Of a DNA stretch of 32,000 nucleotides, positions 10,458-27,189 are shown piece by piece. This stretch comes from Salinisphaeraceae bacterium (lineage in GTDB: Bacteria > Pseudomonadota > Gammaproteobacteria > Nevskiales > Salinisphaeraceae), in NCBI GenBank assembly GCA_040222795.1, contig JAVKCJ010000037.1, positions 18,798 to 50,797 of the forward strand. The letters are read 5' to 3'. Positions within the stretch are counted from its first letter, which is position 1. Each line of letters opens with the position of its first letter. Below the pieces are notes generated by a model. That model saw only the letters and a program-made list of their open reading frames with translations. It did not search any database and was not told the origin of the DNA. Made by a program: the position numbers and the translations under genes.

Positions 10458-13400
10458 ATGGCTTTCCCGACATTGAATCCTCTTCGAGTTCTGCCACTGC
10501 TTGGGGCTGTGGCGACGGCGTGTCAGCCCTGGATCCCAGCAATGGTGGTCCTGATGTCCGCGACACCGACTATCGCCCAGGCCCCTGCCGGCGACCCGGA
10601 GGAGTATCTGCGCCAGGGTGAGTCGTTCGGCGAAAGTCAGCGCTTGAATGCGCCCCGTCCGGGATTCTCTCCCGACAGCTATCAGATCACGGTGCCCAAT
10701 CGCGACGGCACCTCCACCCAGATGGACTTCGGGACCCGTCCCGATGGGACGACTTACTCGCCGTCGGATATCGACGGGTTGCGAAACTCCTACGGTGATA
10801 ATGCCGAGACCCGTCAGCAGGTTGATAACCGGCCACCTGATCCCGCCGCCGATACCGTTGATCCGGTGAAATCGGACCGCTCCCGCACCTCGATGGAGAA
10901 TGACCCGACGATCGCCCGGTCCGATCAATACCTGCAGGGTATGGAACGTGACGGTGGCTTTACCGCCCAAACCCAGCAGTGCCAGGTGGTTGAACCCCAG
11001 GACGATGGCAGCCCTCATGTCGAAGACCCCCGCGATTGCGTGAGTGTCGATGCCCCGGCCATCGCCGAGTGCACGATCGACAACGAGCTGCAGCTCTCGA
11101 CCACGGACAACCAGGCGGTGGCCCTGACGATCCTGATCGAGAAATCCGATTCCATGCGTGGCGGCAACCGGATGGAGGATGCTGCCAGCGCCACGGTTTC
11201 CGTAGCCCGGGCATTGGAATCCGCAGTGTTCACCGAATACTCGGTCCATGCCTATGCCCGCGGTGGCGACGACCCTGCTTCGGCTGATGGTATGGCCTCG
11301 AGCTACTCCTTGACCGCATTTCCCGAGAACATCAACGACCCTGGCGTCATTACTCGATATGCCGAGATAGAAGCGGACGCGAACTCGACGCCGACAGCCA
11401 GCGTCATGGATGCGGCGGCCAATGTCCTGGTCAGCAGCCGGCGGGAACCGCGCAAGCTCGTGCTTGTGCTCACCGATGGCCGGCCGAGCTTTGAACAGAC
11501 CTGTCCCAATGCCGCGGACTGCAATCCCCGAGGTGTTGCCGAGCACTACGCGGGCGAGGTCCAGGTGGCTGCGGTGGGCATTCAAAGCGATGCCGTTCAG
11601 GACGACTTCGATCTCTACCGTGTCGCCAACTCCAGTGGCCAGATAGCAGAAGCCGTTTTCGAGATCCTGTCAGAGGACCTTGGCTGGTTCCAGGTCTCCA
11701 ACGTCTGGAAGCCCGACACCTGCATCGAGACCGCCCAGGAGGTACAGAACGAGACCTTCGCCGGCGAGATTTCCTGCAGTGCGCCACCGGATAGCAGCGG
11801 CTGTGTGGAGATCGACGGCGTTCGCGTGTGTGAAGGTTCGACCTTCGCCGAGCAGATGTCCGAACCGCCGGTCGACAACGTACCGAAGGTTTGCGGTGCC
11901 ATCGAAGTCACCGATGTTGAGTATTGCTGGCGTGACTCCGATGGGTCTCAACAGTGCACCAACGACACCGACGAAGAGGCCCCGGGCCCGACACGCTGCG
12001 AGATATACCGGTCTGATCCCCAGTGCGGTATCAAGACCTCGCAGTGTGTCGAATCCACCCGCAATGAAGACGGTCAGTGCTACGTCTTCGAGGAGGTCTG
12101 GGATTGCGGCTTCCGTGAAGCCGGCCCGAACGTGACTCGTGACACCGAGGGCAATATCTATGAATGCGACGGTCAGTCGATGGGCTGCATTGACGGCAGC
12201 TGCATGGATGACCCCCAGGAGGAAAACCCGAATTTCGAGTCCATGGCCACGACCCTGCAGATGGTGGAATTCACCGCCCAGGACGAAGGCACCTGCGACA
12301 TCAACAACGGTTGTGAGCTCTTCCCTGGCGAAGCCTACTACTGTAAATCGGAGGTCTTCTACGGCGCCGAGAACTGTTGCGACGACACCCCTGAAGTCAA
12401 TTTCGTTGCCTACATCACCGCAGCAAAGCTCGCCTGGAAGGGGCTGAAGTCCGAGCAGATGGCCAACTGGATGGCCTCCTATGGCGTGGACTACATGGGC
12501 TATTGGCAGTCATTCCAGTCAGGGGCCTATGACGTCTACGGCTCCATTTCGAGCCACTTCACCAGCGCCTTCGGCTCCATGAGCGAAAGCTACGCCGGCC
12601 AGGCCGCGGTCAACCAGGGCGCTGCCAGTACCGCCGAGGCTGGATCTCAACTGGGCATTGATAGCATCAAGCAGGAAATCCTCAACCAGGTGCAACGGTG
12701 GATGGAGCGGTTCGCCCCGGCCATGCACGATGCCCTGTTTGCCGAAGGTGCACAGCAGGGTGGCCAGGCGGTGTTGTCTGATCAGGCCCAGCAGTACATT
12801 GGCTACGCCAGCTGGATCATGACAGCCTATTCCTATTACCAACTGGCCAAGTTCGCGATCACCATCATCGCCGACTGTCAGGATGATGAGCAGCCGTTGT
12901 TCAACATCAAGCGAGACAACCTACGCAGCTGCCATGTCCTTGGCGAGTATTGCCACCGTGATGATTTCTTCGGCAATTGCATCGAGCGTCGGTTGACGGG
13001 CTGCTGTTTCAACTCGCCCTTGTCGCGCATTCTTCAGCAGCAACTACACCAACAGCCGCATCTCGGGCTTTCCTGGGGAGATGTCCGTAACCCGAGCTGT
13101 GCTGCCATCCCGCTTGAAACGATGGCCCAGGTTCGCTGGGAGGATGTCGATCTCTCCGAATGGACCGACATTCTTTACGAAACCGGCATCGCGCCGAGGG
13201 CTGCCGATATGCAAGCCGCCGGCGCCCGCGACCAGAAGACCGCGAATGTCGATGACCCCAACTACTATCAGCCGCCCGATTCGGACGAACGCTACGATCG
13301 ACGCTCGACCGACCCTGAAAGTGGTGACCAGAGCTTCGATTTCTCTGAGATTCGCGACAAGAACGTGGAAGAGATGCGACGCCGCACCGATTCAGCTGAC

Positions 13401-13598
13401 GAAGCCAACAACGGCGAGAACAATCAGCCCAACGGTGGTGCTGCACAGAACCCCGACGCGGGAGCCGCCTCTCGTGCGTATGCGGTGCCGCCTTCCGGCC
13501 GCGCCGCGCTCCAGATTGAACAGGACGCCAACGGGGATGGCCGAATCGATATTCGCGACGGCGTCTGCAGCCTGTTCAACAACTGTCAGACTCAATGA
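10458..13598 (+). CDS. traN: Mating-pair stabilisation protein TraN (giant, 1046 aa)
   Basis: Long signal sequence and many Cys residues. Conserved C-terminal GCCFNSPLSRILQQQ box as in TraN. Size is comparable to R27 TrhN. Carries an internal vWA-like segment (see findings). Confidence 0.8.
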   Translation: MAFPTLNPLRVLPLLGAVATACQPWIPAMVVLMSATPTIAQAPAGDPEEYLRQGESFGESQRLNAPRPGFSPDSYQITVPNRDGTSTQMDFGTRPDGTTYSPSDIDGLRNSYGDNAETRQQVDNRPPDPAADTVDPVKSDRSRTSMENDPTIARSDQYLQGMERDGGFTAQTQQCQVVEPQDDGSPHVEDPRDCVSVDAPAIAECTIDNELQLSTTDNQAVALTILIEKSDSMRGGNRMEDAASATVSVARALESAVFTEYSVHAYARGGDDPASADGMASSYSLTAFPENINDPGVITRYAEIEADANSTPTASVMDAAANVLVSSRREPRKLVLVLTDGRPSFEQTCPNAADCNPRGVAEHYAGEVQVAAVGIQSDAVQDDFDLYRVANSSGQIAEAVFEILSEDLGWFQVSNVWKPDTCIETAQEVQNETFAGEISCSAPPDSSGCVEIDGVRVCEGSTFAEQMSEPPVDNVPKVCGAIEVTDVEYCWRDSDGSQQCTNDTDEEAPGPTRCEIYRSDPQCGIKTSQCVESTRNEDGQCYVFEEVWDCGFREAGPNVTRDTEGNIYECDGQSMGCIDGSCMDDPQEENPNFESMATTLQMVEFTAQDEGTCDINNGCELFPGEAYYCKSEVFYGAENCCDDTPEVNFVAYITAAKLAWKGLKSEQMANWMASYGVDYMGYWQSFQSGAYDVYGSISSHFTSAFGSMSESYAGQAAVNQGAASTAEAGSQLGIDSIKQEILNQVQRWMERFAPAMHDALFAEGAQQGGQAVLSDQAQQYIGYASWIMTAYSYYQLAKFAITIIADCQDDEQPLFNIKRDNLRSCHVLGEYCHRDDFFGNCIERRLTGCCFNSPLSRILQQQLHQQPHLGLSWGDVRNPSCAAIPLETMAQVRWEDVDLSEWTDILYETGIAPRAADMQAAGARDQKTANVDDPNYYQPPDSDERYDRRSTDPESGDQSFDFSEIRDKNVEEMRRRTDSADEANNGENNQPNGGAAQNPDAGAASRAYAVPPSGRAALQIEQDANGDGRIDIRDGVCSLFNNCQTQ

Positions 13599-14488
13599 CC
13601 AGCGTAGGCATATAGGCGAAGAGCCGGCACGATCGGCTCCTTCGCCAGTCGACGGCCGCCGCTTCGGGGTAGCCGCTTCTTTCGCTCGCGTTCATCCGGC
13701 GGGTAGGCGTCCAGCTCGTTATGCCGCACACCCGCGGCGCCAGGCCGCGCCGGATAGAGCAGGGGCAGGGCGGCATCGAACATCTGTCGCGTGGTCTCGT
13801 CATCAATCTTCCAGACCACGTTGGCCCGCACGGATGGCGCCACCGGCTTGACCACCGCCAATTCCTGATTCTCCGGCATCGCACTAAGGCGTGCCTGAGC
13901 CTGTTCCCGAACCCGATCCGAGAGGTGTTTCGCCCTCCGCACCATCGCCCGGCCTTGCGCCACATCCACCTTGCGGATCGAGCGATTACCACATGACCAG
14001 GTCAGGCTGATGGAGGCGGGCATCGGCTCCAGTACCCGAATCTGGCGATAGGTTTGTACAAGATGCACCCGCGCATTCCCCACCTGGGATAGTGCCTCAA
14101 CGACGGCAGGCGCTCGTCCTCTGTCCTCATTGATCAGTCGGTTGACGGCATCTTCTTTCCCCAATCCCTCGGGATGCCGGATCTCCAGCACGCGTTTTTT
14201 CACCCTGGATTTCCATTCGTTGACCCGGCGGGCACAGGCCAGGGTTTTCTCAGACACGCCCAGCGCGCCAGGGCAGCGATCGCTCCGGCTTTCCTCCTGA
14301 GACTCACGATATTCCAGTCGTCGGATCGCCGCGGCCGCGGCGGCATGCCTGGCGTTTTCCCGCCATGCCAACCAACCGGGATAGCCGGCTTGTTCGTCCT
14401 GGATCAATCGGCCTTCAAGCTCCGAGAGTGCCTCGGCAAGCCCATTGAAGGCTTCCAGAAGGGCGATGCGCATGTCATTTTTCATCAC
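13592..14488 (-). CDS. Tus-family (DNA replication terminus site-binding) protein homologue
   Basis: 298 aa against 309 aa for E. coli Tus, with collinear matches from memory. CPGALGV matches LPGVLCY. TYRQIRVLEPMPASISLTW matches AYRTLTVLHDPATLRFGW. MPENQELAVVKPVAPSVRANVVW matches [23 protein letters not shown]. The C-terminal IVPALRLYAYAGH matches IIPRLHLYVAD. The start is GTG 14488 or ATG 14485. Confidence 0.55.
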   Translation of the reverse strand: MMKNDMRIALLEAFNGLAEALSELEGRLIQDEQAGYPGWLAWRENARHAAAAAAIRRLEYRESQEESRSDRCPGALGVSEKTLACARRVNEWKSRVKKRVLEIRHPEGLGKEDAVNRLINEDRGRAPAVVEALSQVGNARVHLVQTYRQIRVLEPMPASISLTWSCGNRSIRKVDVAQGRAMVRRAKHLSDRVREQAQARLSAMPENQELAVVKPVAPSVRANVVWKIDDETTRQMFDAALPLLYPARPGAAGVRHNELDAYPPDERERKKRLPRSGGRRLAKEPIVPALRLYAYAGH

Positions 14489-14491
14489 CGC

Positions 14492-14506
14492 TATTATACC
14501 ATCCCC
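14492..14506 (-). promoter_or_regulatory. Left arm of the 15-bp perfect inverted repeat; extended -10 promoter facing the tus-like gene
   Basis: The minus strand reads GGGGATGGTATAATA and contains TGGTATAAT (TGnTATAAT). 7 nt separate the -10 from the A of ATG 14485. No Shine-Dalgarno sequence is present. Confidence 0.5.
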
Positions 14507-14623
14507 AGAGGAAGGGGTAGACGGACGTCTGTTTGCCGAACTTTTTTCTTCTATGCTCTTCTTCTATCCCCTATAACCGCCGCCGATCTTGTGCTACGAC
14601 GCGGACGGTCATGCAGCCCAAAA

Positions 14624-14638
14624 GGGGATGGTATAATA
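14624..14638 (+). promoter_or_regulatory. Right arm of the 15-bp perfect inverted repeat; extended -10 promoter facing the small basic ORF
   Basis: The plus strand reads GGGGATGGTATAATA. 6 nt separate the -10 from the A of ATG 14644. No Shine-Dalgarno sequence is present. Confidence 0.5.
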
Positions 14639-14643
14639 ACGAC

Positions 14644-14805
14644 ATGAAAGGCAAGACAACATCGGCGAGGCCACGAGTTCGCAATCGAGTCGCCCAGTCA
14701 GCCTGGGACCGGCAGAGCGGGCCACATGGCAAAACGCGCAAGGCGGATCGCCGTGCTGAGAAGATGGCCGATCGTCGTGCCCTTCGGGAGCGGCTGGACG
14801 ATTAG
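14644..14805 (+). CDS. Hypothetical small, highly basic protein (53 aa)
   Basis: ATG lies 6 nt after the extended -10. The protein is R/K-rich (MKGKTTSARPRVRNRV..RKADRRAEK..). Third-position GC is moderately coding-like. The region could instead be the 5' part of a non-coding antisense RNA. Confidence 0.35.
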   Translation: MKGKTTSARPRVRNRVAQSAWDRQSGPHGKTRKADRRAEKMADRRALRERLDD

Positions 14806-15911
14806 TCGTGCAATCGGCGGCCCACCCTGAGCACCGGGTCGAAGCTGTACAGATGTTCCCTGGGCGCGTTTCGGCAAGTCCCCACCAGGCGCCCGGGATG
14901 ACGCCAGCGAGACCCTTCGCGGATCTCCAGCTCGCCGCCACATAGCTTGCAGCGCCCCTCATAGGCGGACAGGCGCAACCGCTTGACCTCATAACCCCAC
15001 TGGTCCACACGCCGCTGTGGGTCATATTTGAACTCAAGCAGCAGGGTAGGGTGGTCAATGCGCGTTCGCATCCAGGCTGGGGCAACCACCACTCCAAGAC
15101 GTTGCACGCTGACGAACGCCCCGACTGAACGCCACAAGATCCAGCCGCTGAAAACGAGCACCACCATCGTGGTGACCCAAGGCCGCAGGCCTTCCTTGTC
15201 TGACGCGGTGATCACGGCGGCGTAGGCCACAACGATGCTCACAGCCACGATCAGGCTAACTGTCAGGTAGAAGAAGGCCCCCGACATACCTGCCAGTCTC
15301 AGGTTTCCCAGAAAGCGCCCGAGACGGGGCATCTCTGGCAGCCTCGACACTTCGTATCTCACCTCATTGTCGGCGAGCTTCGGGCTCGTGGCTTTGGGCG
15401 TGTCGTGGGCGTTCGACCGGGCACGGATCGCCAACCCATAGACAACCGCGTTGCCCGATCCGCCCGCACCGGCGTCGTAGCGAGCAAGCGCGACTTCAGC
15501 GGGAATCCCCGCGTCGGCCAGTCGCTCCTCCGCTACAGCCTTGGCTTCTTGCCACCAGCTACCCTCGCTCAGCGTCTTCCAGTAACGCCGAACCCGACCG
15601 GCAAACTCCGATCCGTAGTCCACCTCATAGCTGTCCGGCATGCGCCGACCGTTGCGAAGTTCGTAACCGGCCACGTAGAGTTCCCGGCCATCGAGCTCTT
15701 TTACCCAGCGACCGTCTGATGCCTGATCGCACAGGGCCATCGCCAGACATTGCGGCCAACGCTCTCGCCCGGGGCGATGCATGCTCTTGAGCACGTCGCT
15801 CACAACGGCCCAGTAGGCATCGACCGGGTTTTCAGCCCCCTTCTCGGACCCCTTGTAACCCCCATCGGGCGCTGTTTCGCTGCTCGTCGCCTCGCCAGAA
15901 TGAGCCTGCAT
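14802..15911 (-). CDS. Hypothetical membrane protein: N-terminal soluble domain, 2 TM helices, C-terminal zinc-ribbon-like domain
   Basis: 369 aa. TM segments GAFFYLTVSLIVAVSIVVAYAAVI and WVTTMVVLVFSGWILWRSVGAF. C-terminal CKLCGG..x21..C..x6..H. AGGT lies about 11 nt upstream of the ATG. I recognise no family. Confidence 0.6.
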   Translation of the reverse strand: MQAHSGEATSSETAPDGGYKGSEKGAENPVDAYWAVVSDVLKSMHRPGRERWPQCLAMALCDQASDGRWVKELDGRELYVAGYELRNGRRMPDSYEVDYGSEFAGRVRRYWKTLSEGSWWQEAKAVAEERLADAGIPAEVALARYDAGAGGSGNAVVYGLAIRARSNAHDTPKATSPKLADNEVRYEVSRLPEMPRLGRFLGNLRLAGMSGAFFYLTVSLIVAVSIVVAYAAVITASDKEGLRPWVTTMVVLVFSGWILWRSVGAFVSVQRLGVVVAPAWMRTRIDHPTLLLEFKYDPQRRVDQWGYEVKRLRLSAYEGRCKLCGGELEIREGSRWRHPGRLVGTCRNAPREHLYSFDPVLRVGRRLHD

Positions 15912-15931
15912 GTCTGATTACCTGAATTGAC

Positions 15932-15957
15932 GGCGGCCCGCCTGGGCCGCCTTTTTT
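15932..15957 (+). terminator. Canonical intrinsic terminator, oriented for the plus strand
   Basis: GGCGGCCC (15932-39), loop GCCT, GGGCCGCC (15944-51), then TTTTTT (15952-57). In minus sense the stem is followed by GUCAAUUC, a poor U-tract. Confidence 0.6.
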
Positions 15958-15960
15958 ATG

Positions 15961-16752
15961 TCATCGCCGGAAGTGAAGCACCCGCCCCTGGTTGAGATAG
16001 ATCGGAACCTGGTTCCGTCCTTTCTTCGGTGCCAGATAGATGTAGGCGTTGGCCGGCAGGCGCTGACTCCAGGCGCTCACGGCGCCGATCTCATGCCAAC
16101 GGGTCACCAGATTTCGATTCTGGTCATAAGCATTGAAGTAGCCCCGCACCATGTATGCCGGTCGCCCCCCTGCCAGCGGATTCCCTGGCGCCAGATCCGC
16201 GGTGACTTTGGCCGGAGCCCCACCACTGCAAATCTCAGTCGAGCACCCGCTGCCTTCCACGTAGATGCTGTCTCGCCGACGAACGCCCCTGCTGCCTTCG
16301 GGTATCCGACGCATGGTTAGGCCGGGGTTGAGCAGAAAATCATCGACATCACGCAGAATCATCTCGGTGACCATCGACTCGGCCCGTTCCGCGTCGCCAG
16401 CCTGTGCCTTGGGCACGATCACGGCCAACGCGTCGTTGCGAGCGATGTGCGGGGACGCGGCAAAGAAGCTGAGCAGATCGACGGCGCCAAACGCGGCGCC
16501 CTGCATCATGCCAAGCCCCGCGGTGACTGCCTCGGTCTCGCTGTCGAACTTGTCGTAGGCAGCCTGGCGTTCGATGGTTCGCTGCGTCTTGACGTCCTGC
16601 AGCGGCCCCTCCTCGTCGGTCAGCCCCTGGGCATGAGCGATATTCCATGCCCGGCTCTTGCTGGCCTGGTAATCCACTGTTTTCGGGGCACTGGCGCAAC
16701 CAGCCACTGCGGCAATCCCACACAGCAAAAGGACGGTCTTGATCGTGTTCAT
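15961..16752 (-). CDS. Hypothetical lipoprotein
   Basis: ATG 16752 is preceded by GGGAG at 8 nt. Signal peptide plus lipobox (LLLCGIAAVAGCAS). 263 aa. No recognised family. Confidence 0.65.
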   Translation of the reverse strand: MNTIKTVLLLCGIAAVAGCASAPKTVDYQASKSRAWNIAHAQGLTDEEGPLQDVKTQRTIERQAAYDKFDSETEAVTAGLGMMQGAAFGAVDLLSFFAASPHIARNDALAVIVPKAQAGDAERAESMVTEMILRDVDDFLLNPGLTMRRIPEGSRGVRRRDSIYVEGSGCSTEICSGGAPAKVTADLAPGNPLAGGRPAYMVRGYFNAYDQNRNLVTRWHEIGAVSAWSQRLPANAYIYLAPKKGRNQVPIYLNQGRVLHFRR

Positions 16753-18532: not shown

Positions 18533-18952
18533 ATGCGCATAGCACCAAGCGACGTTCAGACAGGATTTTCGCTGCTTGAGCTGATGATTGTTGTCGCGCT
18601 CATCTCAATTCTCGTCTGCATCGCCATCCCCGGGTACCAAACCTACGTCCAAACCGCCCGGCAAACAGACGCTCAGCGCTTTCTGCTCGAGATGTCGTCG
18701 CGGATCCAGACGTATCGCCTAAGCAACCGCATTTATCCGGCTGGCCTGGGGAGCGATCCCGGGCAGATACCCATCAGCCTTCCCGACCGTCTGGACGACT
18801 ACTACAGCGTTTCCTACACCCTCGATGCCAATGGCACCCCCCCCGTTTATCGGGTTACGGCCACCCCTGTTCCAGATTCTCCCCAGGCGTCCCGTCCGGA
18901 GCTCACGCTGGTCAGCAATGGCCTTCGCTCCCCAGCTTCGGCGTGGAAATGA
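18533..18952 (+). CDS. pilE: Type IV pilin-like protein, PilE type
   Basis: Class III prepilin signal ..VQTG/FSLLELMIVVALISIL, followed by IPGYQTYVQTARQTDAQ, typical of PilE. Confidence 0.8.
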   Translation: MRIAPSDVQTGFSLLELMIVVALISILVCIAIPGYQTYVQTARQTDAQRFLLEMSSRIQTYRLSNRIYPAGLGSDPGQIPISLPDRLDDYYSVSYTLDANGTPPVYRVTATPVPDSPQASRPELTLVSNGLRSPASAWK

Positions 18953-19452
18953 TCGGTCCGTTCTTCCAGAAGGGGTTTACGCTACTCGACGCCTTGGTCG
19001 TGATAGCAGTGCTCGCCGTAGCTCTCGGGCTGGGTACGCCAGCATTCGACCACTACATTAAAGCCAGCTCTGTTCGCACATCTGCCTCCGAGCTGCAAAA
19101 GGCGTTCATCCTCGCTCGTACGGCCGCCATTGAACGTGCGGTTCCGGTGTATGTTTACCCTGATGCCAGTTGGGGGAAGGGCTTCGCCGTTACGGTGGCT
19201 CAGAATAAAACTCCAGAATCCTGCAGCAAGGATAGTACCGACTGCCTGCATCACATGACGCCTTCGGAATTCTCCCGCGCCAAGATTCGCGCGACAGATG
19301 CCGCTATTGAGTTCCTTCCGACTGGCGAATCCACGACTCCGACGACTCTCATCGTCTGTGCCGAAGATTACGGGGATCTCCGCACCATTCACTTGTTGGC
19401 AAGTGGGCGGACATTTGTCTTGCCGGACACGGGCGCTTGCGATGCGTCTTGA
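18943..19452 (+). CDS. fimT: GspH/FimT/FimU-family minor pilin
   Basis: Prepilin motif QKG/FTLLDALVVIAVLAV, then SELQKAFILARTAAIERAVPVYV, typical of the GspH/FimT family. Overlaps the pilE stop. Confidence 0.7.
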   Translation: MEMIGPFFQKGFTLLDALVVIAVLAVALGLGTPAFDHYIKASSVRTSASELQKAFILARTAAIERAVPVYVYPDASWGKGFAVTVAQNKTPESCSKDSTDCLHHMTPSEFSRAKIRATDAAIEFLPTGESTTPTTLIVCAEDYGDLRTIHLLASGRTFVLPDTGACDAS

Positions 19453-20008
19453 GCAGGGCGTCACCCTCATTGAGATTCTTATATCCCTCCTGGTCCTGAG
19501 TATCGGGCTGCTGGGCTTGGCCGGGTTGCAGGTGAGTGCTCAGCAACTCTCCATGGATGCTTACGAGCAAGAGCGCGCTGGATTGCTTGCTGACTACATC
19601 GTCGAACGTATCGCGTTGAATCGCGAGGCCCGGCAGTGCTACGGCTTTACCGATCCGGTTACCGGCGGTCCCGCGATCGGCCAGGGCGTCGAGATCGACC
19701 TGACTTGCACCGGGTTTGGCACTATCGCGACCCAAGAACTTGCCGAGGCCGATCTCGCAGCCTGGGAGCAAATGCTCGAAGGCGCGACTGAGACTCTCGC
19801 GGGAAACAACGTCGGCGCCATGGTCAACGCCCGAGGTTGCATTTGGCTTGATGCCGACGCCAATACCGCGACGATTGCGGTCACTTGGCAAGGGGAAATT
19901 CAGGCGGATGCGCCCCCGGCATCCCTCTGCGGCGCGAATCAATACGGCGACGAACGCTACCGCCGCGCGCTTATTCGCACCCTTGAGTTCGCGGACCTAG
20001 ACGCATGA
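19442..20008 (+). CDS. pilV: Type IV pilus minor pilin PilV
   Basis: Internal ATG 19442 gives MRLEQG/VTLIEILISLLVLSIGLLGLAGLQ, the canonical PilV N-terminus. The longer ORF-track start 19298 overlaps fimT. Confidence 0.8.
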   Translation: MRLEQGVTLIEILISLLVLSIGLLGLAGLQVSAQQLSMDAYEQERAGLLADYIVERIALNREARQCYGFTDPVTGGPAIGQGVEIDLTCTGFGTIATQELAEADLAAWEQMLEGATETLAGNNVGAMVNARGCIWLDADANTATIAVTWQGEIQADAPPASLCGANQYGDERYRRALIRTLEFADLDA

Positions 20009-20123
20009 GGCGCTCGCGCCAACAAGCGGGCTTTACCCTCATCGAGCTTCTGATCGCGCTCACCCTGGGCTTGCTCGTTATTGCGGCTGCTGGGGCAGTG
20101 TCCTTAGCCGGGTTCGGTCCCAC

Positions 20124-20987
20124 TCACACGGACGGTTTGGAAAGGGCTTCAAACTGCTGATCGAGTTTATCGAGTCTACGTTGCATCCTCGGGTTATGAA
20201 ATCGCTCGATGTAGTCGAAAACGTCTGAGCGAGCCTGGGCTCGGGTCAGGTATTTCCGTCGGCGGACCCGCTCGCGCTTGAGCACGCCGAAAAAGCCCTC
20301 GCAGGCGGCGTTATCACCGCAGTGGCCGACCGCACTCATGCTGCTGACGAGATTCTGGTCTTTGAGAAAGCCCTGCACCTCATGACTGGTGAATTGCGTG
20401 CCGCGATCCGAATGCAGGATCACCGGCTGGCCGGGGTCCTCACGACGTCCCAGCGCGGCGGTCACCGCATCCAGCACCAGCTGACGCTGCTGCGTCGCGC
20501 CCATCGACCAGCCGATCACGAGCTTGCTGTAAAGGTCGATCACCACGCACAGAAATAGCCAGCCTTCGGCGGTGCGGATCTGGGTGATATCGGTCACCCA
20601 TTTGGTGTTGGGCTCAAGCGCGGCGAAGTCGCGCTCGAGATGATTGGCGATGCCGATGGGTCGCAGCCCCGATGGCTTGTAACGCCAGGACCGGGCCACT
20701 GGGATCCCGTGGATGCCGTGTCGGCGCATCAGGCGTGCGACCCGATTGAGACTGGCCCGCTCGCCTTCAAAGCCGAGTTCTTCGTGCATGCGCCGGCGTC
20801 CCATCACGCCGAGATGATCGGCATGGATCGCCCGAATGCGGCTCAGTAGCCTGCGATTGTCACGTACCCGAGCACTGGGCCGGCGTTTCTGCCAGTCGTA
20901 GAAACCGCTGTGCGAGACCCGCAAACAGCGGCACATCAGCCGCACCGGATAGTCGCCGCGGCCAGCATCGATCGCCTGGTACTTCAA
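20124..20987 (-). CDS. IS3-family transposase OrfB (DDE), probably made as an OrfAB fusion by -1 frameshift
   Basis: DDE triad contexts [15 protein letters not shown] and [11 protein letters not shown]. The orfB frame stays open upstream to the T TTT TTG heptamer at 21029-21023. Confidence 0.9.
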
Positions 20988-21277
20988 TTCGATTCCCTGG
21001 CGAAGAATGTGGCCGCGTCTCGCAAAAAATCGCGTTCCTTTTTCAGGCGCGCGTTCTCCCGCTTGAGCCGGGCCACCTCCTCGTCGCGGGGCGTACCAGT
21101 GCCGCCGAAGGCGGTCCGGCCTTGCTCGTCGGTCTCGCGGCGCCAGCGACTGAGCAGGTTGGCGGCGATGCCAATGTCGCGGGCGACCTGGGTCACGCTG
21201 ACATCCGGATGCCGGGTCAATTCAACCGCTTCGCGCTTGAACTCGGGACTGAATCTTCTTCGCTTGGACATGGACAC
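20984..21277 (-). CDS. IS3-family transposase OrfA (HTH)
   Basis: 97 aa. [42 protein letters not shown] and a leucine-zipper-like tail, as in IS3 OrfA. Confidence 0.9.
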
Positions 21278-22223
21278 TCCTTTGGGCCATTGTGACGCCT
21301 TTCGTATGTGTCCGTGCTAGCGGGACCGAACCCGCCGGCACGTTGTCACATCAGTCCCTCGATCAATCCTCAACCGTCATGGAGCGTGGTGGCGCCGCCC
21401 TTCGCATGATCAAGCGTGAACTCATTCATGCTGGTTACTACGGGCGTTACGCCAACCTGGATAACCCCATCCCAGCGCCACCCGCGACCCCTAACCCCTG
21501 TGCCACTGACCTTGCATCTCTGCGTGTCGCTGCAGCGCTGCCAATCCAGGGTTATGACGCACCCACGGGGAAGCCCTTGCCTTGTCTGTCCGACAGCAAC
21601 CACATCGATGGCACTGACATTCTGGTTATTCGTCGCGCTTCGCCCATTCAGACGACAGGATCCTTATCCCCTTCCCGCGTCTATCTTCAGTCCAACGCGA
21701 TGGCATTAAGACTGGATAGTGGCGACGGCAGTTTTGATCTGACTGATCGCTTCGGTCTCCCGTCGGCGATACGCGAGTATTACGTCGATATTTACTTCAT
21801 CAGCCCCTGTCTTGTCACCACGGCCAATGAGTGCACAGCTGATGCTGATGGCGGCAACCCTATCCCTACCTTGAAACGACTCAGGCTTTCTAGTAACGGC
21901 GTAAGCCCAGTCTTCACCGAACAGCCTATGATCGAGGGGGTGGAGAATCTCCAGTTCGATTTCGGTCTCGACACGACCGAGGATGGCATCGTCGATCCGC
22001 CGTATGTCACCGCGCCGCTCACGCCCCCTGATTGGGCCGACGTGATTGCTCTTCAGGCATTCGTCCTGGCGCGGTCAATTGGCCCAGATGCCGGCGCCGC
22101 ATCTCAGCGCACCTATCACCTCGGGCTTGCTGGCAGCTTCGGCCCCTTTGCCGATCGCGTACTTCGCCATTCCTATGCGACCTCCATGCGTCTTATGAAT
22201 GTCGCAGGACGCCGAGAGCTCCC

Positions 22224-22658
22224 ATGACCATTGGTCGCCCGCAACCGCAGCGGGGCTTTGCTCTGGTGATCTCCCTGATTCTTCTGGCAGTCCTTTCCTT
22301 AATCGCAGCCAGTTCTGCCTCCCTGTCCAGGTTCGACGCACAACGAGTCTCCTTTCTCGAAAACCGTGCCGCGGTAAAGGATTCGTCTCTTCAGGCATTG
22401 GAACAAGCTTTGAGTGATCCGGCCTTTTTGAAAGGCGCAGCGACACGAGACCTCTCTCTCAACGCGGTCAATGTCACCGTGGCCGTGCCGCTATGCACTC
22501 GTGCCACCACAATGGCTGGGTTCAGTCTCAAGAACCCCCTATCTCTCGAACGCGCTTACTGGCGACTCGATGTCAGCGGGCAGGACACCGTCTCTTCCGC
22601 AGCCTTTCGTGCGCGCCAGGGGATTCGCACCATCCAGACCGCAGCAGGCTGCCCATGA
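22224..22658 (+). CDS. pilX: Type IV pilus minor pilin PilX
   Basis: ATGA overlap with pilW. N-terminus MTIGRPQPQRG/FALVISLILLAVLSLIA matches the PilX N-terminal domain pattern (no Glu5). 144 aa. Confidence 0.7.
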   Translation: MTIGRPQPQRGFALVISLILLAVLSLIAASSASLSRFDAQRVSFLENRAAVKDSSLQALEQALSDPAFLKGAATRDLSLNAVNVTVAVPLCTRATTMAGFSLKNPLSLERAYWRLDVSGQDTVSSAAFRARQGIRTIQTAAGCP

Positions 22659-25600
22659 AACACCTTCTCGCTTCCGCCTTGCTTGGCCTTGGCGTTCTGG
22701 CATGGCTCCCCGTTAAGGCCGAAGATATCGATCTGTACCGTCAGGACACGGGGAGCATTTCGGCCCCGGACGTGCTCTTTTTCATAGACAACAGCGCGAA
22801 CTGGAACGCCTCGATTGGCACGACCAGCAAGCGAGAGCTTGAGCATCAGGCGCTCACCACCTTCTTTAGCAATCCGGATATCGTCGGCACGATGAATGTC
22901 GGGATCATGCTCTTTTCCAAGGGCAACTCCCCGAAGGGAGGAAAGATCATCGAGTCGGTGAAGCCCCTTACCGAAAGCTATCGGCAGCATCTGTTATCTC
23001 GAATCGAAGAAGGTCTTCCCAAGACCAACAACGCCCCTTTGGCGCTATCGCTCGAAGAGGCCAGGCGGTACTACGGTGGTATTGCTCCGCGATCGGGGAC
23101 CCAGGACGGCAGCACCGGGGAAGACCGGTACGACACGGACGCCATTGAAGGCGACGGCAGCTATGATTCCCCCGGCAATAACACCGGCGGATGCGGTCGC
23201 CATTACATCGTTTTCATCTCCAATGGAGAGCCAGACAGTGGCGAAAACCGCGATGCGGAGAATCAGCTGCAAGCCATTGATGGGATACTGGATTCTGACC
23301 CGATCAACCTTGACCCGAGTCAGTTCGAGAGCAGCTGGGCTGACGAATACAGTCGCTGGCTTGCCAATAACCAGGTCATGCATGAGGGAATCCGTACAGC
23401 CTATCCGTCTGTTTACACCTATGTGATTGATGTCTTTGCGGATTCCGAGACCACCGACGACAATCAGCAATCCAACGGGAACAAGAAGAAGGGGCAGGGC
23501 GGCGGCGGGCAAAACGGCAATCGGAAATTCGAAAGCGCCCGAGCCCTCAATCGCAGCATCGCTGATCAGGGCAAGGGCCGCTATTTCACCGCGGCATCTG
23601 CCGCTGACGTGAATGACGCCCTGGTTTCAATTGCTGACGAGATCCAATCGGTCAATTCTGTGTTCGCCTCAACTGCGCTGCCCGTCTCGGTCAACGTGCG
23701 AGGCACAAACCTTAACCAGGTGTACCTGGGCGTATTCCGCCCCGATGGTGACGACACCACCCGTTGGCAAGGTAATCTCAAGCTCTTCGAGCTTGCCCTC
23801 GACGATGCCACCGACGAGCTCTTCCTTGCGGACCGCCATGGCAATCGCGCTCAGTCCGCTGTCACGGGTTTTATTGCACCAGGCAGCGAAAGCCACTGGA
23901 GTCATAGTTCCAGCTTCTGGGCCTTTTCTCCTAGTGGCACCCCGCCATCGGAAAGTGATCTCCCAGATGCGGAGGTGGTGGAGAAAGGCGGGGTCCACCA
24001 ACGCCTTCGCGACGCCGAAAGCAACGGCACGATAGTGGGCCAGCGTTCCGTTTACACTTGTGCAGGCGGGTGTACCCAGGGTGGCTTGCTATCCGATAAC
24101 CTGTTCGCCCCTTCCAATGCCGCAATCACTCAAGCGGATCTGGGAGCCGCTGACGTGGAAGATCGGGCCGACATCATCAATTGGGTGCTCGGGCTTGATA
24201 ACCATGAAGATGAGGACGGAGATGGCCAGCGCACCGATGCGCGCTCCTCGATTCACGGCGACGTCCTGCATTCGCGTCCGGCGTTGATCAACTACAACCG
24301 TGATGGCACAGATAACGACATCGTCGCCATCTACGGGGCCAACGATGGCCAGATACGCGCAGTGCAAGGAGGTTTCGGAGACCAGCGTGGCTCCGAGCTT
24401 TGGTCATTCATTCCTCCAGAGTTCTTCCCCCGTCTCAAAGCGCTGCGCGATAACGACGTCCGTGGTAAGTCTTACTTTGCCGACGGTAACGTCGTCCCTT
24501 ACATCGTTGATTCGAATCAGGACGGCGATCTCGCTGACGCAGGCGACAAGGCCTTCGTATACGTCGTCATGAGACGTGGTGGGAATTTCATTTATGCTCT
24601 GGACATCTCCAACCCCGACGCTCCACGCTTTCTATGGTCCATTTCGGATCAGACTGCAGGCTTCGCGGAGCTGGGTGAAACCTGGGGCGCCCCGGTAGTC
24701 GGCCGAATAGAGGCACACGACAGCCCAGTTGCCGTGATTCCCGGCGGGTACGACCCAGGTGCCGATGACCCAGAATCCAATGACTCCCGCAGCATGGGGC
24801 GCTCCATTTATGTGGTTGATGCTGTTACCGGCGCTTTGATCTGGCAGGCGAGCGGCAATCTCGATCCATCTGGCCCCGGCGCCTCGTTACTCGTTCCCGG
24901 GATGACCCACTCGATGCCGGCGGATGCCACGGCCATCGACCGAGACCAGAACGGTTTCCTCGATCGGATATACCAACCGGATACCGGGGGACAACTATGG
25001 CGGTTCGACATTGCCAATCCGGACCCATCGCAGTGGGAGGCGTCCCGTCTGGCCAGCGTCGGCGATGACCAGGAGTTTCTCTATGCGCCCGATGTGGTAG
25101 CTGGCGGAGACAGCGCAGGTGCCTTCGATGCAATTCTGATTGGCGCAGGCGATCGTGAAGACCCCTTCGATACCTCTGTGACCAACCGCTACTACATGAT
25201 TAAGGATCGGGCGGTAACCGAGTCACGTACAGGATATGCCACGGTCACGCTTGCCGACCTGCATGATGCCACCCCTGCAGATCTTCAGAACGGGGTTGCC
25301 TCAGCCCAAACGGCGCTGGACGCATCCAGTGGTTGGTATTTGACGCTCTCCAACCCTGGTGAAAAAGTCGTCAGTACAGCAACAACCATCAACGGGGTAG
25401 TGTTCTTCAACACCACCCAACCGCCGCCTGCTGATGCGCTGACCTGCTCTGTGAGTCTCGGTATAGCTCGACTCTACTCAGTGAGCTACAAGGACGCGAC
25501 CGCAGTAGCTGATCAAAGGGCCCCTGCTGGACTGGACGTGCAGGACCGCCATGTTGAAGCCCCCGGTGGGGGTTTCCCGCCATCGCCTGTCCCAGTCGTC

Positions 25601-25720
25601 GTTCAAATCGACGGACGAGAGCACCTGGCGGTCATTTCGGGCACAAATGTTCTCACCCCGCCCACGGTCAACCTAAACGTCCGGCAACGCGTCTACTACT
25701 ACGAGTCTGGCATTCGCTGA
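22655..25720 (+). CDS. pilY1: PilY1-like pilus tip adhesin with N-terminal vWA domain
   Basis: ATGA overlap with pilX. Signal peptide MKHLLASALLGLGVLAWLPVKA. vWA-like N-terminal region (VLFFIDNSANW .. ALVSIADEI). C-terminal beta-propeller-like region with EF-hand-like loops DSNQDGDLA (24509-24535) and DRDQNGFLD (24938-24964). Confidence 0.85.
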   Translation: MKHLLASALLGLGVLAWLPVKAEDIDLYRQDTGSISAPDVLFFIDNSANWNASIGTTSKRELEHQALTTFFSNPDIVGTMNVGIMLFSKGNSPKGGKIIESVKPLTESYRQHLLSRIEEGLPKTNNAPLALSLEEARRYYGGIAPRSGTQDGSTGEDRYDTDAIEGDGSYDSPGNNTGGCGRHYIVFISNGEPDSGENRDAENQLQAIDGILDSDPINLDPSQFESSWADEYSRWLANNQVMHEGIRTAYPSVYTYVIDVFADSETTDDNQQSNGNKKKGQGGGGQNGNRKFESARALNRSIADQGKGRYFTAASAADVNDALVSIADEIQSVNSVFASTALPVSVNVRGTNLNQVYLGVFRPDGDDTTRWQGNLKLFELALDDATDELFLADRHGNRAQSAVTGFIAPGSESHWSHSSSFWAFSPSGTPPSESDLPDAEVVEKGGVHQRLRDAESNGTIVGQRSVYTCAGGCTQGGLLSDNLFAPSNAAITQADLGAADVEDRADIINWVLGLDNHEDEDGDGQRTDARSSIHGDVLHSRPALINYNRDGTDNDIVAIYGANDGQIRAVQGGFGDQRGSELWSFIPPEFFPRLKALRDNDVRGKSYFADGNVVPYIVDSNQDGDLADAGDKAFVYVVMRRGGNFIYALDISNPDAPRFLWSISDQTAGFAELGETWGAPVVGRIEAHDSPVAVIPGGYDPGADDPESNDSRSMGRSIYVVDAVTGALIWQASGNLDPSGPGASLLVPGMTHSMPADATAIDRDQNGFLDRIYQPDTGGQLWRFDIANPDPSQWEASRLASVGDDQEFLYAPDVVAGGDSAGAFDAILIGAGDREDPFDTSVTNRYYMIKDRAVTESRTGYATVTLADLHDATPADLQNGVASAQTALDASSGWYLTLSNPGEKVVSTATTINGVVFFNTTQPPPADALTCSVSLGIARLYSVSYKDATAVADQRAPAGLDVQDRHVEAPGGGFPPSPVPVVVQIDGREHLAVISGTNVLTPPTVNLNVRQRVYYYESGIR

Positions 25721-25817: not shown

Positions 25818-26222
25818 ATGGAGTTTGCTATGAGCAAGAATTCTGACGCGTATCTGGATGACGACCAACCGCAGAAGGCTGCGGATCTCATGGGGGTCGA
25901 TCTCGATCCCAACTGCCATGACCGCGATCTGAATGAGACGATGACTCGTGGGGAATTTCTTCAGGAGTTCCTCCAGGACCAGTCGAAACAGCGGCTGCTG
26001 GCAATGCTTTACGGCGGAATTCATAACGCGGTAAATCCCAATTTTTCAAGAGCCAGACGCCGTCGCGGCCTGCTCGCCAAGGACCCCCATGCCGTCCTTG
26101 AAGTGATCGCCGATGGCGCCGCCACGCCTGAAAGAAAGCAGGAATTTGCCGTACTGGTCGAGTCGCTACGGGATTTCCTCCTCCGCGTTTATGACGAAAC
26201 CGCTCCCGACAATCCCGGCTAG
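25818..26222 (+). CDS. Hypothetical protein (acidic N-terminus)
   Basis: 134 aa, or 130 aa from ATG 25830, which has GGAG 6 nt upstream. No family recognised. Its stop overlaps the RES gene stop. Confidence 0.5.
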   Translation: MEFAMSKNSDAYLDDDQPQKAADLMGVDLDPNCHDRDLNETMTRGEFLQEFLQDQSKQRLLAMLYGGIHNAVNPNFSRARRRRGLLAKDPHAVLEVIADGAATPERKQEFAVLVESLRDFLLRVYDETAPDNPG

Positions 26223-26704
26223 CGGTTGAACAGCCGCCTGTCCCACCAAACGGGCATCGGCAGGCCCACCTCGATATCCGAGAATTCAGGGTGGTGCGGG
26301 TTGATGATCACGTTCTGCTCGAGCCGGGCGACGAAACACGGAACAAGCAAGATCGCGGATCGTGCCTCGGTTGCCCAGGAAACCGCGAATGCCCGGCTGG
26401 TTGCCTGTCGTCGCGCATCCCAGCCCGGCAACAAGTCTGGGGTGACGCATTCGTAACTCAGGCCGCGGGGCAGGGTGATCTCCACGTAGTGCTGGTTGGG
26501 CGGCATCAGGCCTGACGATGCCGCCAGCTTCTCCAGCATGGCGGCGCTGTACTGTCTGGACGCATAGATCACCGGCGTGTGCTCGTCGTTCCAACGCCCC
26601 GGGAATCGTGTCGATCCGGTGGCATCGAAAATCGGGAACACCCCGCCTGGGTCCCCGATTCGATAGGCCGTGAGTGTTCGGTCCAGCTTCTGGGCTGTGC
26701 TCAC
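26219..26704 (-). CDS. RES-domain toxin (RES/Xre type II TA system)
   Basis: 161 aa. R..E..S signature contexts (TAYRIGD, GRWN, VIYAS..AAMLE, SAILLVP). GTGA overlap with the upstream antitoxin gene. Confidence 0.8.
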   Translation of the reverse strand: MSTAQKLDRTLTAYRIGDPGGVFPIFDATGSTRFPGRWNDEHTPVIYASRQYSAAMLEKLAASSGLMPPNQHYVEITLPRGLSYECVTPDLLPGWDARRQATSRAFAVSWATEARSAILLVPCFVARLEQNVIINPHHPEFSDIEVGLPMPVWWDRRLFNR

Positions 26705-27135
26705 GCAGCCGAGCCGTACTTCAGTCTACCGAGGATATCTTCCACCATGCTTGCGCCGATATCCGTCCCCACGGCCACATCCAACGGGGTTTGGCCGTCA
26801 AGGAACATGTGGGGTCGCTTGAGGAACTCGCGAGCGGTGTGCTGATCCCGGAAAACGTCCTCTGCGGCGGCCAACACTCTCGCCGCTCTCTCGAATTTCT
26901 GGCTTTCAACGCTGTTAAGCCGCCCAGATTTACGACGTCGATCGAGCGTTGTTCCTTTCACGAAGAGCTCGTTGACTTGCCGATCAGCCAGCATCATAGC
27001 GGACTTGACTCGATCCACCACAGAGGTTGGGAACCCCTCCTCAATCCGTTTGATCAGCGCTAGGGGATTATCGAAGTCTCCTTCGTGCATTCCCAGAATG
27101 CTGGCCACGTTATGCGTCTCGGTTTGGATTTCCAT
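26701..27135 (-). CDS. Xre/MbcA/ParS-family antitoxin (DUF2384-type)
   Basis: 144 aa. C-terminal ..AREFLKRPHMFLDGQTPLDVA..G...V.DILGRL pattern typical of RES-partner antitoxins. GGAGG RBS. Confidence 0.75.
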   Translation of the reverse strand: MEIQTETHNVASILGMHEGDFDNPLALIKRIEEGFPTSVVDRVKSAMMLADRQVNELFVKGTTLDRRRKSGRLNSVESQKFERAARVLAAAEDVFRDQHTAREFLKRPHMFLDGQTPLDVAVGTDIGASMVEDILGRLKYGSAA

Positions 27136-27161
27136 CGTTCGTCCTCCGTCATGTGGGGTCC

Positions 27162-27189
27162 ATTATAACCCCAGATGGATGGTGCGCAA
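27162..27189 (-). promoter_or_regulatory. Putative sigma70 promoter of the TA operon with flanking short IR
   Basis: Minus strand: TTGCGC (27189-84), 16-nt spacer, TATAAT (27167-62). GGGGT/ACCCC (27155-59 and 27168-72) brackets the -10. Confidence 0.45.

Follow-up and report, generated by a model that had tools for sequence, protein, structure and literature searches.

In a stretch of 32,000 nucleotides (nt) from a Salinisphaeraceae bacterium (assembly GCA_040222795.1, contig JAVKCJ010000037.1, positions 18,798 to 50,797; the whole stretch is here referred to as the window), the gene of a very distant homologue of Tus is located on a conjugative element, and a perfect inverted repeat lies directly upstream of it. 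We consider it rather probable that the two arms of this repeat are the cognate, Ter-like DNA sites of the adjacent Tus-like protein, which overlap twin extended -10 promoter elements and would serve autorepression. The comparison of loci shows the motif contained in the arms to be specifically linked to Tus-like genes across deep divergence. The Tus-like protein is the presumed binder, the arms are predicted to be active promoters of leaderless or near-leaderless mRNAs, and binding would, by analogy, repress them. Tus-Ter is the textbook polar replication barrier and is, to our knowledge, known in detail only from Enterobacterales.

The right arm of the repeat, GGGGATGGTATAATA, is located at 14624-14638 on the plus strand. 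The left arm at 14492-14506, the candidate binding site of the Tus-like protein beside its gene, is the exact reverse complement of the right arm and thus carries GGGGATGGTATAATA on the minus strand. This perfect 15-nt inverted repeat was the starting point of the original prediction, and reading of the sequence, a repeat finder and a pattern search agree on it. The repeat finder gave slightly longer arms of 18 nt (14489-14506 and 14624-14641) which are 94% complementary and 117 nt apart. With up to three mismatches allowed, GGGGATGGTATAATA had two matches only on both strands of the 32-kb window, and these were the two arms. The earlier estimate of about 1e-5 for the chance occurrence of such a repeat within about 155 nt has the right order of magnitude (~1e4 arm pairs x 4^-15). 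Furthermore, TGNTATAAT was present twice in the window, both times inside the arms, as compared with 0.10 expected copies, and two copies were found in none of 100 shuffles.

Each arm holds GGGGATGG together with TATAAT. A sequence with the form of the extended -10 element of a sigma-70 promoter (TGnTATAAT) is present twice as TGGTATAAT, at 14629-14637 in the right arm and at 14501-14493 in the left arm. Perfect TATAAT hexamers occurred three times in the window, which has a G+C content of 60%, and two of them were in the arms. On the right side the hexamer (14632-14637) is followed by 6 nt (14638-14643) and the start codon ATG 14644 of a divergent small open reading frame (ORF). On the left side the hexamer (14498-14493) is followed by 7 nt (14492-14486) and ATG 14485 of the tus-like gene. 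As originally described, the start codons are thus found 6-7 nt past the -10 hexamers, and a Shine-Dalgarno sequence was found before neither ATG 14485 nor ATG 14644. No match to a -35 element was present at either arm, and a promoter scanner with a threshold of 9/12 matches found no promoter. The geometry is consistent with the predicted twin extended -10 promoters and leaderless transcripts, and it is also found in the relative L054.

Loci of distant relatives were obtained from a metagenome scan that was seeded by a protein pattern only and yielded 80 loci, 71 of them non-identical. Within these 71 loci (243 kb, both strands) the expression ATG[AG]TATAA occurred 70 times. Thirty of the 70 occurrences were located 11-52 nt upstream of a Tus-like start, counted from the A of the match, and about 29 just past a Tus-like stop codon, in both cases on the gene strand. 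The 17-nt site starts 5 nt before this A and therefore lies 16-57 nt upstream of the Tus-like gene. The consensus in the relatives, AGATGATGRTATAAAA, is asymmetric with a length of about 16 nt, and its counterpart in the window is AGGGGATGGTATAATA. Flanking positions, which are free of the constraint of the regular expression, were conserved as well (G at -1 in 58 of 58 sites), and conservation reached 5 nt upstream of the TG. Pieces of GATGATGATATAA were the top upstream words in a de novo count of 8-mers.

In total, the motif family was tied to Tus-like genes in about 45 loci that had been picked by protein homology alone. It was nearly confined to the flanks of these genes, as opposed to other genes of the same loci, and the Tus-like gene was the only gene common to all motif-bearing loci. 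Since Tus-like genes of dozens of unrelated bacteria have the motif at their flanks, the arms are most likely the docking sites of the protein itself. Binding of the Tus-like protein to the repeated module, which had been proposed from the window only, has thereby gained independent comparative support from about 45 loci and from the rank of the two arms in the matrix test described below.

The same proposal is supported by inverted pairs that the repeat finder detected directly upstream of the Tus-like genes of three distant relatives. These were: the plasmid of Flagellatimonas centrodinii (L058, 28% protein identity; arms TAGGGGGATGGTTTATAAA, 24 nt, 92%, gap of 136 nt), L055 (34% protein identity; arms GAGGAGATGGTATA, 18 nt, 94%, gap of 79 nt) and L054 (37% protein identity; arms TGGTAACGGTATAA, 14 nt, 100%, gap of 46 nt). 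In L054 the site was present a third time, as AATGGTATAAATCCACG-ATG at 16 nt from the start codon, a spacing like that of the window. A wider pair, which is not directly upstream of the gene, was present in L118 (arms of 21 nt, 90%, gap of 715 nt). In the complete 146.5-kb Flagellatimonas plasmid the arm sequence was found twice only, at the promoter region of the Tus-like gene. The left arm of L058 is located 26 nt before the ATG of the divergent gene, with a Shine-Dalgarno-like run between. The embedded TATAA(A/T) is well placed as a -10 element in the window, L054 and L058.

Wastewater and digester metagenomes contributed a chromosomal clade (L062-L120) in which the Tus-like gene has a direct copy of AGATGATGRTATAAAA on either side, one upstream and one just past the stop codon. 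The neighbours of the gene are a LysR-type regulator gene on one side and, on the other, a glgX-like gene with CBM48 and alpha-amylase domains. The downstream gene starts 100-170 nt past the second motif copy, and in most of the chromosomal loci a TAAACT/TAAAAT-like sequence was found about 45-55 nt past this copy, which may be the downstream gene's own -10 element. Many chromosomal relatives have a Shine-Dalgarno-like purine run directly after the motif, so that the motif cannot be the -10 element of an mRNA using that run. It is hence the site that has been conserved, and its use as a promoter need not have been. The overlap with a promoter, and hence the predicted leaderless expression, would be a feature of some lineages including that of the window.

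A 17-nt matrix built from 58 sites of the relatives was applied to the approximately 64,000 positions of the window. The right arm had the highest score (20.3 at 14623-14639, plus strand) and the left arm the second highest (15.9 at 14491-14507, minus strand). In 1000 shuffles the probability of a top score of at least 20.3 was 0.001 and that of a second score of at least 15.9 was 0. A possible third match, CGGCGATGACATAAAAA, was located at 15953-15969 on the minus strand in the orientation of the left arm. Its score of 10.8 is within the range of the shuffles (mean maximum 8.2, standard deviation 3.3), and it overlaps the stop codon of a 268-amino acid (aa) gene as well as an A/T tract that adjoins a hairpin terminator (hairpin 15932-15951). 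The variant GATGACATAA is present at genuine sites of the family in L090. The third match is probably due to chance.

Three syntenic contigs of close relatives were compared with the window. In two of them the spacer between the arms is identical to that of the window, and the third, L001, has diverged. The coding sequence of the tus-like gene is 91.9% identical to that of L001, with 52 of 72 changes at third codon positions, and the spacer (14507-14623) is 73.7% identical (31 changes). Both arms are 100% identical and lie in intact blocks, at 14487-14508 and from 14620 onward, respectively. The left-arm block of 22 nt has no substitution while the spacer is 26% diverged, and at the substitution rate of the spacer the probability of such conservation is about 1e-3. 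Only the conservation of the left arm is informative, because everything to the right of 14620 is nearly identical in L001 (98-99.8%).

The similarity to L001 jumps at the right arm, from 74% in the spacer to 98-99.8% over 1.3 kb, and the position of this jump near 14620 looks like a recombination boundary. The divergence of the spacer also exceeds that at the third codon positions of the tus-like gene (52/298, ~17%).

The tus-like gene (13592-14485, minus strand) encodes a protein of 297 aa. Its start is ATG 14485, because the in-frame GTG 14488, which was considered as well, is GTC in L001 and was ruled out. The protein matches the Pfam family Ter (PF05472) with 30.6 bits against a cut-off of 22 over residues 143-280. 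An exhaustive search found 429 cluster representatives (50% identity) of about 300 aa that align end to end at about 30% identity; a word-indexed protein search gave one cluster only, so that the family is visible only by exhaustive search. A profile of 52 relatives matched the E. coli Tus chains in the PDB over the full length with an E-value of about 1e-6, and hhalign against E. coli Tus gave a probability of 95.7% and an E-value of 8e-9. The protein identity to E. coli Tus is about 16-21%. The AlphaFold model of the protein had a pLDDT of 91.2 and a pTM of 0.86. When it was compared with the PDB by Foldseek, the E. coli Tus structures 4xr2, 1ecr, 4xr1 and 4xr0 were the only matches at E <= 0.001, with E-values of about 1e-13 and TM scores of 0.65-0.68. 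Based on the Pfam match, the profile match and the predicted fold, the product of the leftward gene is a genuine but very distant Tus homologue. Its 90% cluster contains the protein of Salinisphaera sp. P385 (Spectribacter acetivorans) and that of a Salinisphaeraceae metagenome-assembled genome.

A large chromosomal branch of the Tus-like family (L005-L050) includes Berkiella, Coxiellaceae, Legionellales, Francisellaceae and Piscirickettsia salmonis. In this Legionellales-type branch a modest upstream enrichment of TGYTGTA (8 versus 2 expected) is suggestive but not decisive. Galli et al. 2019 (PMC6549158) described three 'resident' clades, and this branch lies far outside them.

The arrangement in the window can be compared with that of TerB and tus in E. 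coli. In E. coli MG1655, TerB is located on the tus strand, ends 10 nt before the ATG and is preceded by TGCTATAAA; the analogy drawn by the original prediction is in agreement with this position and strand (Toft 2021, PMC8707476). E. coli Tus represses its own promoter via TerB, at which forks that run the same way as tus transcription are arrested, and all tus-bearing bacteria examined have a Ter site next to tus (PMC8707476). The window site likewise ends 6 nt before ATG 14485, on the gene strand and at the promoter-like element. Both loci have an asymmetric gene-strand site directly upstream of the terminator-protein gene, the site is next to or overlaps an extended -10 element (TGCTATAAA in E. 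coli), and the window protein is homologous to Tus by sequence and fold. Unlike in E. coli, the window site contains ATGGTATAA instead of ATGTTGTAAC and is duplicated in mirror image 117 nt away. Additionally, the ATGs of the window are 6-7 nt from the -10 element, whereas the E. coli ATG is located 10 nt past Ter, with a leader, and the lock pocket is not evidently conserved in the window protein.

The arms share 9/14 and 8/14 bases with TerB positions 6-19, in the register in which ATGGTATAA corresponds to Ter positions 8-16. The E. coli-type Ter core GTTGTAAC is not present, as the arms have GGTATAAT (5/8). The similarity to the E. coli Ter core had been called unconvincing from the beginning, and rightly so: it reaches 9/14 at most, and 38 14-mers of the window match E. 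coli Ter equally well or better. The direct likeness to TerB is for this reason not evidence and was dropped. In the relatives L018 (~1840-1856) and L026 (~2960-2977) the exact E. coli Ter core, ATGTTGTAAC/G, starts 16 nt before the start codon. The sequences beside the gene are thus ATGTTGTAAC in E. coli, ATGTTGTAAC/G in L018 and L026, GTGCTGTAA in other Legionellales-type loci and ATGRTATAA in the clade of the window, a loose series across clades which is suggestive only. In the tus promoter region of E. coli MG1655 (L142 1218-1260), TGCTATAAAATAAGTATGTTGTAAC, the extended -10 element abutting TerB (TGCTATAAAA) is identical at 9/10 positions to the part TGATATAAAA of the new motif. It is therefore ambiguous which of the E. 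coli elements the new motif matches.

The residues I79, F140, H144 and G149 of the cytosine-lock pocket, whose identities agree with the sequence of E. coli Tus, are paired by hhalign with Y59, A124, V128 and R139. None of them appears to be conserved, but the alignment is gapped and of low confidence in this stretch. The equivalent of Ter position 6 is a G in the window arms and a T in 45 of 58 sites of the family, in a register that is statistically unsupported. The lock mechanism is not supported, since the pocket residues do not look conserved and the consensus has a T at the place of Ter G(6).

According to the explanation we prefer, a Tus-like protein bound to an arm would occlude the -10 element or the transcription start. 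An occupied left arm would repress the tus-like gene leftward, as E. coli Tus does at TerB, and an occupied right arm would repress the 53-aa gene rightward. The asymmetry of the site fits, because Tus is a monomeric binder. As a possible second role, the arms could act as a head-to-head pair of polar fork barriers. Several points weigh against binding by the Tus-like protein. Next to the 38 window 14-mers that resemble E. coli Ter as well as the arms do, the conservation of the right arm in L001 is inseparable from the near-identity of the sequence to its right. No convincing motif above the threshold was found in the other plasmid-borne relatives, namely pMPPla107, pBASL58, two Halomonas plasmids, Methylophaga, Stutzerimonas and P. 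silesiensis. The motif was first spotted by eye, and a regular expression set the core of the matrix; the flanks and the 8-mer count, on the other hand, are free of bias. Finally, taken by itself, the conserved core qualifies as a good extended -10 element, and promoter function could for this reason account for part of the conservation.

This last point leads to the alternative that the arms are a duplicated strong extended -10 promoter of two divergent leaderless genes to which no specific protein binds. Two perfect TGGTATAAT elements in a window of such high G+C content, with an ideal spacing of 6 and 7 nt to the ATGs, would be expected from it, and E. coli tus has TGCTATAAA just upstream of TerB as well. 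However, the conservation of 5 nt upstream of the TG concerns positions without a known promoter role, and the motif is nearly restricted to the flanks of Tus-like genes. It also recurs past the stop codon with the next gene 100-170 nt on and a TAAACT/TAAAAT-like sequence between, and in many relatives it is directly followed by a Shine-Dalgarno-like run. We therefore consider a promoter without a binding protein improbable. A regulator other than the Tus-like protein, for example the 53-aa protein or a host factor, could use the arms as operators. The 53-aa product is very basic and co-located, and four synonymous changes back the coding status of its ORF, but it is an orphan, whereas the Tus-like gene is the sole gene common to the motif-bearing loci; the motif occurs at chromosomal LysR-type/glgX-like loci and on a plasmid where the divergent gene is helicase-like. 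This makes another regulator very improbable. Hardly probable at all is an origin of conjugative transfer or another transfer-related cis site. The region adjoins F-type transfer genes, the Flagellatimonas pair is located between the Tus-like gene and the helicase-like gene, which is followed by the coupling-protein gene, and the spacers of both elements contain a polypurine tract. The motif is, however, also found in chromosomal loci without transfer genes, no relaxase gene is located within the window, and the spacer is poorly conserved.

A role in replication deserves more weight. By analogy with known terminators, the pair could primarily be a miniature replication fork trap of two polar Tus-like/Ter-like barriers arranged head to head, with regulation being secondary. 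Such a trap would determine where vegetative replication of the element ends, or it would halt run-through replication; we regard it as possible, but on the unlikely side. Should the sites of the window have the polarity that TerB has relative to tus, their blocking faces would both be turned towards the spacer; this is how a trap is oriented, and no other orientation would be viable for strong barriers. The same relative orientation was found in all five inverted pairs (window, L055, L058, L118 and L123), but divergent promoters predict the same arm orientation, and the two copies of the chromosomal clade are direct and not inverted. A protein with sites only at its own promoter, as on the Flagellatimonas plasmid, needs a further purpose. 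On this plasmid the pair, at 89.5 kb, falls in the terminus-proximal part, close to the antipode though not at it, which would be compatible with a trap near the terminus but is no proof of one. The GC skew of the plasmid has a significant two-state pattern, changing at about 4 kb (RepB at 1.2-2.4 kb) and at about 76-82 kb; the second of these breaks, however, lies 8-13 kb from the pair, and nowhere does the skew reverse its sign. Two-site traps have been proposed as ancestral (PMC8707476), and tus has been proposed to derive from plasmids (PMC6549158). The alignment of the lock-pocket residues to Y59, A124, V128 and R139 and the consensus T at Ter base 6 speak against a trap, and a two-way barrier would be harmful if the element were integrated in a chromosome.

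Closely spaced inverted terminators are present in R6K and at the IRI/IRII-rtp locus of B. subtilis. There they stop forks from both directions, and the likeness of the window to them is one of arrangement. In contrast to the window, R6K carries no tus gene and uses the Tus of the host and canonical Ter sites. R6K has a two-way terminus, and R1 enforces unidirectional replication via Ter (PMC10331603). As in the window, the inverted terminators of B. subtilis are located just upstream of the terminator-protein gene, which is autoregulated according to work cited in PMC10331603. RTP differs in its unrelated fold and in binding as dimers. The type I two-Ter trap of Edwardsiella tarda and other non-Enterobacteriaceae Enterobacterales (Toft et al. 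2021, PMC8707476) likewise has two opposite sites, one of them beside tus. Its sites are chromosomal, 18-56 kb apart around dif, and canonical Ter with C(6), whereas those of the window are 117 nt apart, on a conjugative element and of a different motif.

Mobile, plasmid-borne tus genes are known, and tus has been proposed to be domesticated from plasmids (Galli et al. 2019, PMC6549158). IncA/C, IncT and pAQU1 plasmids have been annotated with tus (PMC4036041). The window resembles these reports in that a tus homologue is found on a gammaproteobacterial conjugative element with an F-type transfer system. Unlike the window, they consist of gene annotation only, and the window protein is much farther from E. 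coli Tus (30.6 bits). For Tus-like proteins as divergent as this one, we found no report in the literature in which the cognate sites are described. The locus and its relatives thus supply a testable candidate site for a large and very divergent family, which spans Legionellales-type chromosomes, chromosomes of wastewater Gammaproteobacteria and plasmids.

A bolder reading, which we hold to be doubtful, is that the locus is a self-contained, portable fork-trap cassette, in which a divergent Tus gene is combined with two head-to-head sites within 150 bp that act as operators and as a two-way barrier. The gene and the two mirrored sites are located within 1.1 kb and could move as a unit, as the domestication scenario requires. 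If true, the cassette would be a living example of the plasmid-borne ancestor of the domesticated chromosomal Tus-Ter, and AGATGATGRTATAAAA would serve as the Ter motif in a large, unstudied Tus-like family whose members are found outside Enterobacterales, on chromosomes as well as plasmids. If binding and polarity were confirmed, it could be asked whether the cytosine lock goes back to the ancestor or was added in enterobacteria, and which function is older, autoregulation or fork arrest.

The divergent ORF (14644-14805, plus strand) encodes a very basic protein of 53 aa. Among four relatives it has 4 substitutions, all of them synonymous and at third positions. A search of 5.8 billion proteins found no homologue outside this element, and there was no match in Pfam or NCBIfam. 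A longer reading of 90 aa from TTG 14533, called by a gene finder in L001, was rejected, because the differences from L001 in the extension are spread evenly over the codon positions (7/8/7). The ORF is convergent with a 369-aa gene, with a 4-nt overlap of the ends (14802-14805).

The fast-evolving spacer of 117 nt (14507-14623) contains a pyrimidine-rich tract on the plus strand (~14541-14571). The copies of TCTTCTAT reported at 14547 and 14560 are correct. A block of 15 nt at 14539-14553 (AACTTTTTTCTTCTA) is unchanged in L001. The spacer is purine-rich on the tus-sense strand, as is that between the arms on the Flagellatimonas plasmid (L058 1120-1160), and both contain AGAAGAAGAG. A terminator-like hairpin at 14516-14537 is not conserved in L001 and was discarded as probably due to chance. 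No known RNA families were found in 14200-15000 and no DNA similarity to plasmids for 13000-16000.

On the Flagellatimonas plasmid (NZ_CP092105.1, L143-L145) nearly all genes are located on one strand, and the GC skew is positive throughout. The breaks of the skew adjoin RepB (~4 kb) and a tyrosine recombinase gene (~76-79 kb). A RecD2-HHH helicase-like gene, followed by a type IV coupling protein gene, lies divergently to the Tus-like gene.

In the window, the tus-like gene follows the genes of an F-type transfer system (TraE, K, B, V, C, F, W/TrbC, U and N). TraN (10458-13598) is unusually long with 1046 aa, and a von Willebrand factor A domain (223-397) precedes the F-type TraN domain. It is convergent with the tus-like gene, with an overlap of 7 nt at the ends (13592-13598). 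Between the 268-aa and 369-aa genes, at 15932-15969, a G+C-rich hairpin is accompanied by runs of T (plus strand) and of A (minus strand); this structure resembles a bidirectional terminator and overlaps the third-best motif match CGGCGATGACATAAAAA. Type IV minor pilin genes (ComP-like, GspH/FimT-like, PilW and PilY1) are present on the conjugative element at 18533-25720. This cluster is interrupted at 20124-20987 by an insertion sequence with an rve integrase, and L051 instead has an IS605-type TnpB insertion elsewhere. A RES toxin and an Xre-type antitoxin form a pair at 26219-27167, and the third perfect TATAAT (27162-27167, minus strand) is located 27 nt upstream of the antitoxin start.

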